From contig CAVRXV010000001.1 in assembly GCA_963725255.1 (NCBI GenBank), forward strand, positions 109,115-173,114: a stretch of 64,000 bases of DNA. The letters are read 5' to 3'. The DNA comes from an uncultured Gammaproteobacteria bacterium. GTDB lineage: Bacteria > Pseudomonadota > Gammaproteobacteria > JAIEPX01. Both the position numbers and the translations under genes were made by a program. This document shows positions 57,264 through 57,437 of this stretch, in pieces. The notes below the pieces were generated by a model. It had not been told where the DNA came from. It was given only the letters and a program-made list of their open reading frames with translations, and searched no databases. Every line of letters starts with the position of its first letter. The stretch's first letter is position 1.

Positions 57264-57437
57264 ACACCCAAGGTGTTAGAAGATCATCCTTTCGCGATGA
57301 GGGGTTTTAGGGGAGAGAATCGAGATTCTCTCCCCTAAATATATGAAAGGAAGCATCTCTCGGTTTTAAAATCAACAGCCATGAACACTGGGTACTGAGC
57401 AACCAAAACACCCAAAGTCCTTAACCGGGAGATGCTG
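57264..57437 (-). repeat. Copy B of dispersed repeat family 'R1', filling the tRNA-Leu/purA spacer and forming the last 6 codons of purA
   Basis: It contains tcctttcgcgatgaggggttttaggggaga (57287-57316), which matches 61115-61144 at 28/30. An internal hairpin is aggggagagaatc/gattctctcccct (57309-57336). The end ccttaaccgggagatgctg (57419-57437) is identical to 1061-1079. gcatctctcggtt (57353-57365) can pair with aaccgggagatgc. Confidence 0.7.

Follow-up and report, generated by a model that had tools for sequence, protein, structure and literature searches.

Two groups of small bacterial repeats are the closest described counterparts of the element considered here. In Coxiella burnetii, every functional gene affected by the elements QMITE1 and QMITE2 has the insertion at its 3′ end, with listed C-terminal overlaps of 1–50 bp (Wachter et al. 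2018, PMC5896051). The QMITEs supply new C-termini and stop codons to these genes, and the authors, who called the preference for 3′ ends unexplained, also distinguish full-size QMITE2 of ~190 bp, which has direct repeats, from small forms resembling repetitive extragenic palindromic (REP) sequences (PMC5896051). In Escherichia coli, a large share of the REPs lies 1–20 nt from the end of an open reading frame (ORF), and REPs no farther than 15 nt from a stop codon cause ribosomes to stall and reduce translation, according to the account of Liang, Rudd and Deutscher 2015 cited in PMC12306157. The present analysis concerns a repeat with a similar address in an uncultured gammaproteobacterium of a Legionellales-like lineage, studied in a window of 64,000 nt (contig CAVRXV010000001.1 of assembly GCA_963725255.1; all coordinates are those of this whole stretch), where the motif CAGCATCTCCC lies at or just after the ends of rpoS, nadD, purA and hflX. 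The motif is probably the gene-side end of a ~175-bp non-coding, hairpin-rich mobile repeat, here called the composite, and we consider it likely that this composite is a lineage-specific repeat of the kind of a miniature inverted-repeat transposable element (MITE) or a REP, caught at several stages of decay.

The window was compared with a close strain (96–99% identity) and with relatives at ~74–93%, including a 75-kb syntenic contig of GCA_019748175.1 and Logan contigs at ~88–93%; these contigs were found through exact look-up of the window Hfq together with RpoS homologues. The identities of RpoS, NadD, HflX, PurA, MiaA and HflK were confirmed with NCBIfam equivalog models. The decamer CAGCATCTCC occurs five times in the window, at 1070–1079 (−), 34916–34925 (+), 57428–57437 (−), 61140–61149 (−) and 63624–63633 (+), where a mean of 0.10 matches is expected, and none of 100 dinucleotide-preserving shuffles reached five, which bears out the over-representation at gene ends that a first-pass annotation of this DNA had reported. 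Four of the five copies are members of a single repeat family. A longer core, AGCATCTCCCGGTTAA, is found without mismatch at 1063–1078 (−) and 57421–57436 (−) and with one mismatch at 34917–34932 (+), and these three copies have the extended core AGCATCTCCCGGTTA(A/G) in common; a 30-mer, for which no occurrence is expected by chance, is common to 57287–57316 and 61115–61144. A repeat finder aligned 1047–1079 with 57405–57437 at 88% over 33 nt, and 57269–57325 with 61097–61153 at 82% over 57 nt. The fifth match (63624–63633, +) is antisense to miaA and overlaps the first base of its start codon; read on the miaA strand it is AAGGAGATGCTGTG, that is GGAGATGCTG followed by TG, a Shine–Dalgarno sequence with a GTG start. 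Similarity there ends at 10–11 nt, a profile of the motif end (nhmmer, built from seven copies) gives no match at this position, and a single 10-mer has a chance expectation of ~0.1; this copy is probably a chance match and not a member of the family. The earlier statement that the motif always lies in the sense of the adjacent gene is accurate for the four family copies and fails for this fifth one.

The composite can be followed along its whole length in copy B (173 bp, 57265–57437, −), which lies between purA and the tRNA-Leu(CAG) gene (57176–57262, +; ARAGORN and Rfam), its distal neighbour, and which reads, in the sense of purA, as an R1 hairpin, a module-2 palindrome and a tail, its distal end being ~7 nt shorter than that of the copy at hflX. 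The R1 hairpin unit (86 bp, 57352–57437, −) has imperfect inverted ends, CAGCATCTCCCGGTTAAGG and ..AAACCGAGAGATGCT. Its left arm, R1-L (57421–57437, CAGCATCTCCCGGTTAA), codes for the final PurA residues (S)ASPG and the TAA stop, and this end of the unit always faces the upstream gene. The right arm, R1-R (57352–57367), holds on the plus strand the inverted partner of the core, with 3 mismatches in 16, a feature absent from the first-pass annotation; in the predicted R1 stem the arms AGCATCTCCCGGTT and AACCGAGAGATGCT pair at 13 of 14 positions. R1-L includes GGTTAAGG and therefore offers a stop codon on either strand. Module 2 (65 bp, 57287–57351) consists of an outer TCCTTTC/GAAAGGA stem around a perfect 15-bp stem, TTTAGGGGAGAGAAT/ATTCTCTCCCCTAAA, with a self-complementary match spanning 57306–57339, and the non-palindromic tail of ~40 nt ends in ...TAAAACCCCTCATCGCGAAAGGATGATCTTCTAACACCTTG. 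Together these parts measure 173–176 bp, within the ~150–180 bp proposed before for the dispersed repeat, and the composite is predicted to fold into a pair of long, neighbouring hairpins (z against shuffles: −4.1 for the minus and −4.8 for the plus strand). Its longest stop-to-stop frame is 38 amino acids, so that the element is small and without coding capacity.

R1 and module 2 are also contiguous in other metagenome copies, and module 2 precedes R1-R in all three contigs of run X1 that reach that side; because of this contiguity across metagenome contigs the composite is treated as a unit. Module 2 is ~10 times commoner than R1 in freshwater metagenomes (depth ~660 versus ~62 in run X4). 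The R1-L boundary at 57437/57438 is sharp in at least eight run X4 contigs, whose flanks are unlike, and in five of run X25, which marks the sequence as multicopy. With these junctions, four loci in the window and one further locus in relatives, the element is dispersed, and its state differs between strains at purA, rpoS, nadD and hflX. Set beside what defines a MITE, the composite has the size and the lack of coding capacity, the dispersion, and a target-site duplication with an empty site; inverted ends of 13/14 bp are seen in the R1 sub-unit, and the two ends of the whole composite match weakly.

The duplication is found at hflX. A collapsed composite of 61 nt (61090–61150, −) lies 11 nt past the hflX stop, with its CAGCATC core at +12, and is flanked by a 5-bp direct repeat, AGAAT, whose distal copy lies at 61085–61089 and whose gene-proximal copy lies at 61151–61155. 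The close strain reads ...TTCA AGAAT GCCCGC at this place, with a single AGAAT and no insert, and two further relatives (L099 and L102) are likewise empty; AGAAT is a 5-bp target-site duplication. In the window copy a deletion between two TCTCCC repeats has brought the first 11–12 nt of R1-L directly against the tail, and other copies of the family proceed past 61144 into a normal module-2 hairpin. The relatives L095–L097 hold a different product at the same site, namely R1-L, the R1 interior and the tail, without R1-R and module 2, by deletion between two AAAAC repeats; the distal junction ...GATTGGAA|ATTCT is identical in L095–L097 and the window.

At purA the copy can be set against strains that lack it. 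The window purA (57421–58725, −) encodes 434 amino acids, of which the NCBIfam model PRK01117 covers residues 3–430, and is 4 amino acids longer than its closest relatives because R1-L has replaced the original last codon and stop. The motif supplies five codons and the stop (57421–57438), one codon fewer than first described. PurA proteins of relatives at 90–91% identity have 430 amino acids and end in RHPFL* or RHPFK*, more distant ones in RHPFD/A and similar. Contigs from a sediment metagenome (runs X1/X2, ~98% identical in purA) join 57264 to 57438 through 20 other letters, which restores the ending ...RHPFL*; since this near-identical strain skips exactly 57265–57437, the limits of 57264–57437 assigned to the repeat beforehand correspond almost exactly to those of a real insert. 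No relative has the purA copy, not even the ~98% strain, which keeps the ancestral stop, and the family has therefore moved recently.

The spacer between purA and tRNA-Leu (57263–57438) is variable in its own right. DNA of four relatives shows wholly different fillers there, and among the close relatives (L089, L091, L095, X1/X2, X3 and X24) at least five unrelated alleles occur: one of 20 nt, one of 40 nt with a short hairpin, two fillers of ~80–100 nt and the 173-nt composite. The two fillers are built on a long hairpin of the GGTGTCA or GGGGTCA type (L089/X3 and L095), and the spacer is a hotspot of small-repeat turnover. GGGGTCA...TGACCCC hairpins also lie in the window at 57034–57128, 8442–8535, 58759–58849 and 63635–63697, and in relatives at 12378–12460 of L095 and 6198–6220 of L091. 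In L095 such a hairpin directly follows the purA stop (TTGTAG|GGGGTCAAG), and the position just after a stop is therefore common to a second, unrelated repeat family in this clade.

The other two loci show what becomes of the insert. At nadD the window retains a 17-nt solo R1-L end (34916–34932, +), which supplies the NadD tail (S)ASPG and a TAG stop, in agreement with the earlier reading of the last five codons plus the stop. The close strain continues for at least 54 more nt of R1, a relative at 87% (L092) keeps ~37 nt and ends in LYLASSS*, and relatives at 74% end in LYL* or LYLA* without the motif. Behind rpoS an R1-L stub of ~40 nt (1040–1079, −; 88% to 57405–57437; nhmmer E = 3e-12) starts 2 nt past the TAA, and both this distance and the 12 nt past the TAA of hflX are as they had been given before; the remainder of the rpoS composite is deleted or rearranged. 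The left junction TAAGA|CAGCATCTCCC recurs in the relative L106 with the tail directly after it, a collapsed form like that of hflX in the window. L107–L109 hold R1-R, module 2 and the tail directly behind an altered rpoS end (KDL*), and the close strain holds module 2 only, so that four different remnants of one composite are found at this single locus. A further stretch at 901–929 (−), GTCTCTCC..AAAC..TCATCGCGA, had been taken for a degenerate third version of the repeat; a global alignment of 885–1084 with copy B gives weak similarity only, and what stands of the claim is a tail-like degenerate remnant. The region downstream of it recurs in L106 and L109. Between rpoS and htpG the window also has, at 658–823, a 166-bp imperfect palindrome with 79-nt arms that are 76% complementary, and a freshwater relative (run X3) skips 657–972 and has 32 other letters there, which makes this another strain-variable repeat.

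Considered together, the alignments of orthologous 3′ ends that the first-pass annotation had called for show the motif as an insertion at purA, nadD and hflX, with relatives that lack it or have an empty site, and of the two natures it had proposed, the mobile repeat is the one upheld, by the 5-bp duplication and the empty sites at hflX and by the absence of the motif from the PurA and NadD of relatives. The collapsed derivative and the solo ends it had postulated are also real, since at rpoS, hflX and nadD the relatives differ in having the full, the stub or the collapsed state. Short direct repeats (TCTCCC, AAAAC) mark the internal deletions by which the element erodes, and each locus keeps lineage-specific products. 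The history that these loci show is as follows. At several housekeeping loci the unit inserted either into the short spacer that follows a stop codon or among the final codons of the gene, and at hflX it made the 5-bp target duplication. It then eroded through the deletions just described, and every lineage was left with its own collapsed forms and solo R1-L ends. Where it landed inside a gene end, it replaced the C-terminus, giving SASPG* in PurA and NadD and, from the opposite strand, VQNIQNS* in the IspF of a relative. A stub that carries the stop of a gene may for that reason be kept by selection while the remainder decays.

The last of these cases comes from a locus at which the window has no copy. 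The R1-L profile found no additional copy in the window or in ~60 kb of relatives save this one, in L106 and L107, where a 42-nt R1-L stub lies 2 nt after the TAA of an 810-aa gene orthologous to window 4746–7193. Read on the opposite strand, the same stub ends the convergent ispF, giving it its final codons and stop (VQNIQNS*); the window ispF ends in LLESKV* and has no stub. At 7166–7198 of the window, where the convergent 815-aa gene and ispF overlap by 18 nt, sediment-strain contigs have 117–120 letters versus 31–34, and the extra letters have no match to R1 at 80% likeness.

Measured from the stop to the CAGCATC core, the element lies at +2 nt after rpoS, +2 after the 810-aa gene of L106/L107, +3 after hflX in L095–L097 (following a TAG) and +12 after hflX in the window; in nadD and purA, both of which use one and the same motif frame for their ...SASPG* endings, it is in frame, with the core beginning 15 nt before the stop and the stop inside R1-L. 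R1-L is thus in the sense of the gene at all five verified loci, between −15 and +12 nt relative to the stop. The strict sense-strand placement at gene 3′ ends described earlier therefore held at every locus checked, the new one in L106/L107 included, the exception being the fifth copy, which is not of the family. GC skew is negative across the entire window and copies lie on both strands, so the orientation tracks the gene rather than the replichore. An IS200/IS605-type bias for one replication strand was considered and rejected, because both strands of a single replichore carry copies and hflX shows a target duplication. Sense orientation and proximity to the stop may in part reflect which insertion sites are tolerated in a compact genome, and may in part reflect, by analogy with REPs, an effect of a stable stem on terminating ribosomes, which it would stall, and on the mRNA 3′ end, which it would protect.

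Several observations weigh against the composite being a simple mobile repeat placed by tolerance. Target duplication is seen at one locus only, the junctions at purA and rpoS being rearranged. The purA copy is not a clean insertion, in that the former spacer has lost 20 nt and the element its distal 7 nt. The five loci share one orientation and none is farther than 15 nt from a stop, a regularity beyond what tolerance by itself would predict. The two ends of the composite are also not clear inverted repeats: CCAGCATC... and ...GATTGGAA match weakly, over 6 bases with a 2-nt gap (CCA(GC)ATC / CCAATC).

Searches for a known identity were made along several lines. A scan of 56900–57600 found no intrinsic terminator, the stems there being followed by TAAAAC or TTTCATAT and by no T run. 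Only tRNA-Leu reaches its Rfam gathering score in the window, and a permissive scan of 57255–57460 returned miRNA-like hairpin noise. By inspection the copy is no attC site: the gene-proximal end has a GTTARRR-like GGTTAAGG with no RYYYAAC in the required place, and the genes are housekeeping genes, not cassettes. The 33-aa long frame of R1, searched against 1.84 billion proteins, found one spurious tandem-repeat protein only, scans of viral contigs for R1-L and module 2 gave no match, and a scan of genome contigs with the 17-mer gave, among the at least 80 matches listed, chance matches that were all unrelated. The RNA runs contain only 5–7% of the words. No autonomous insertion sequence with matching ends was found in the window or in the fetched loci of relatives. 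A perfect palindrome in L075, GCATCTCCCGGTTAACCGGGAGATGC, was judged to be chance.

How the regular placement arises is the point on which the explanations differ most. The element might be kept as a 3′-end module, its stem near or around the stop tuning termination or protecting the mRNA 3′ end, with selection accounting for the position; the first-pass annotation had suggested, as one of two readings, a 3′ untranslated region (UTR) module such as a terminator, a stability element or a small RNA. The strong predicted hairpins would suit such a role, as would the five of five loci within 15 nt of a stop in one orientation and the nature of the genes, which are regulators or housekeeping genes (rpoS, hflX, purA and nadD); for E. 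coli, down-regulation of translation by REPs no more than 15 nt from a stop is also reported, in the account given in PMC12306157. The hairpins are, however, exactly what is lost, the rpoS, nadD and hflX copies of the window having no intact stem, and this loss argues against a conserved 3′ UTR function. Close relatives hold other remnants or nothing at the same sites, and neither a terminator with a U-tract nor an Rfam family was found, so the suggestion of a conserved module is not sustained and the explanation by selection is rather unlikely. A mechanistic placement, in which a mobilising transposase or recombinase recognises a feature of gene ends (the context of the stop codon, a hairpin already present behind it, or the machinery of transcription or translation) and inserts the element in a fixed orientation, would account for R1-L lying exactly 2 nt after TAA at the unrelated rpoS and 810-aa gene (L106) and 3 nt after TAG at hflX in L095–L097, and for an orientation that tracks gene direction and not the replichore. 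The ASPG* frame is moreover open for 10 visible codons in metagenome flanks, a weak indication given that one flank is a single contig and the rest are low-agreement consensus. Against such recognition stand the small number of verified loci (five), flanks just upstream of R1-L that have no common motif (TAAGA, TAAAC, TTATT, TTTTT, TTCTC and AGGCC), and spacers so short (20–100 nt in relatives), with the promoter of the following gene nearby, that tolerated insertions fall near stops in any case; deletions after insertion also reshape the junctions, 8 nt having been lost at the left junction in L095–L097. We regard it as decidedly improbable. The broader proposition that the composite is placed at stops and not merely tolerated there, whether a mobilising enzyme or selection for termination control puts the R1 stem 2–3 nt after the stop, or around it, in the sense orientation, is unlikely too, if worth stating; were it true, the composite would act as a portable ‘gene-end’ cassette, through which housekeeping genes acquire a new C-terminus, stop codon and 3′-end structure.

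Two further explanations were weighed. That R1 is a fragment of a group II intron is suggested by the exact 19-mer CAGCATCTCCCGGTTAAGG, which is found within introns of high-GC metagenome contigs, ~60 nt from the 5′ end; six of the eight metagenome matches and L023 share the intron context with GTGCG upstream, and L081 has Rfam matches to D1–D4 and to domain V/VI. Within L081 the 19-mer lies at 3782–3800, and it also occurs in L082, L083, L085, L087, L088 and L023. The likeness is judged coincidental because identity ends at 19–20 nt, with unlike flanks beyond, and because ~4–8 chance matches are expected, by our own estimate, for a 19-mer in a collection this large, one such match bringing its homologues with it. 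No Rfam intron model matches the window, and the element is 175 bp long with a target duplication at hflX. Target duplication is not expected of group II intron retrohoming, and an intron origin is highly improbable. The remaining explanation, chance or ordinary conserved coding sequence of PurA and NadD, would find its one example in the fifth copy, which resembles a chance match in the miaA ribosome-binding site. For the others it is practically negligible, in view of the shuffles, none of which reached five matches, and of the NCBIfam profile, which stops before the SASPG residues in PurA. The orthologues of PurA and NadD have no such tail; ordinary conserved coding sequence in distant orthologues was an outcome named beforehand as one that would refute the idea.

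Outside these loci, two further features of the region were noted. A 54-nt direct repeat of 89% identity (11840–11893 and 15909–15962 of the window, 4 kb apart) flanks a 1183-aa gene. In L106 (GCA_019748175.1), positions 13232–16589 downstream of htpG encode a PhdYeFM-like antitoxin, a GIY-YIG protein and a Fic/RhuM protein, an arrangement suggestive of a small variable island; the left edge of the window falls inside htpG, and this part lies beyond it.

A mobile repeat of this kind explains several oddities of annotation in the lineage. Two unrelated enzymes end in the same SASPG tail, IspF has different tails in different relatives, and the spacers behind rpoS, hflX and purA are hypervariable. 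The erosion of a small repeat can also be followed here with unusual clarity, the same insertion being found at four loci as full, stub and collapsed forms in different strains. By analogy it would be an ordinary kind of element, of a type known in Coxiella and E. coli. Among palindromic repeats of other bacteria, the ERIC/IRU and Correia (NEMIS) elements are imperfect palindromes of ~100–150 bp in transcribed intergenic regions, present or absent between strains and able to alter mRNA processing. Correia elements duplicate TA and carry integration host factor (IHF) and promoter sites, and ERIC has no fixed orientation toward the upstream gene; we know of no case in which either supplies stop codons systematically. 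The Rickettsia palindromic elements resemble the composite in being palindromic repeats that enter coding sequence, and they are read through in frame as internal peptide segments. The comparison with them offered by the first-pass annotation is a loose one, as only the terminal 5–7 codons and the stop are replaced here and no protein among 1.84 billion carries the R1 long frame.

The likeness to REPs, and to the BIMEs and REPINs, of enterobacteria and Pseudomonas lies in extragenic palindromic repeats just past ORF ends, the stems here starting 2–12 nt after the stop or containing it. REPs are 20–40 nt long and present in hundreds of copies, and RAYT transposases have been proposed to mobilise REPINs, whereas the units here are 65 and 86 nt long, stand in a fixed order with a non-palindromic tail, and come with a 5-bp target duplication. 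With the Coxiella QMITEs, compared by description only, the composite shares the form of a small non-coding inverted-repeat element, a related gammaproteobacterial host lineage and the placement at gene 3′ ends, and the full-size and REP-like forms of QMITE2 resemble the composite and module 2 alone. The two differ in the direct repeats, which are 7–9 bp in QMITE2 versus 5 bp here, and in orientation, as QMITEs occur in both orientations on the chromosome map with no fixed gene orientation claimed, whereas R1 is in sense at five of five loci. They differ also in stability, QMITE positions being conserved between Coxiella strains and the present copies differing between strains at 96–99% identity. 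The fixed orientation and the 2–3 nt spacing bear on whether targeting, tolerance or function explains the position of the Coxiella QMITEs and E. coli REPs alike, and the composite is, as far as these analogies carry, an element with its own sequence family and architecture that appears to behave like both.

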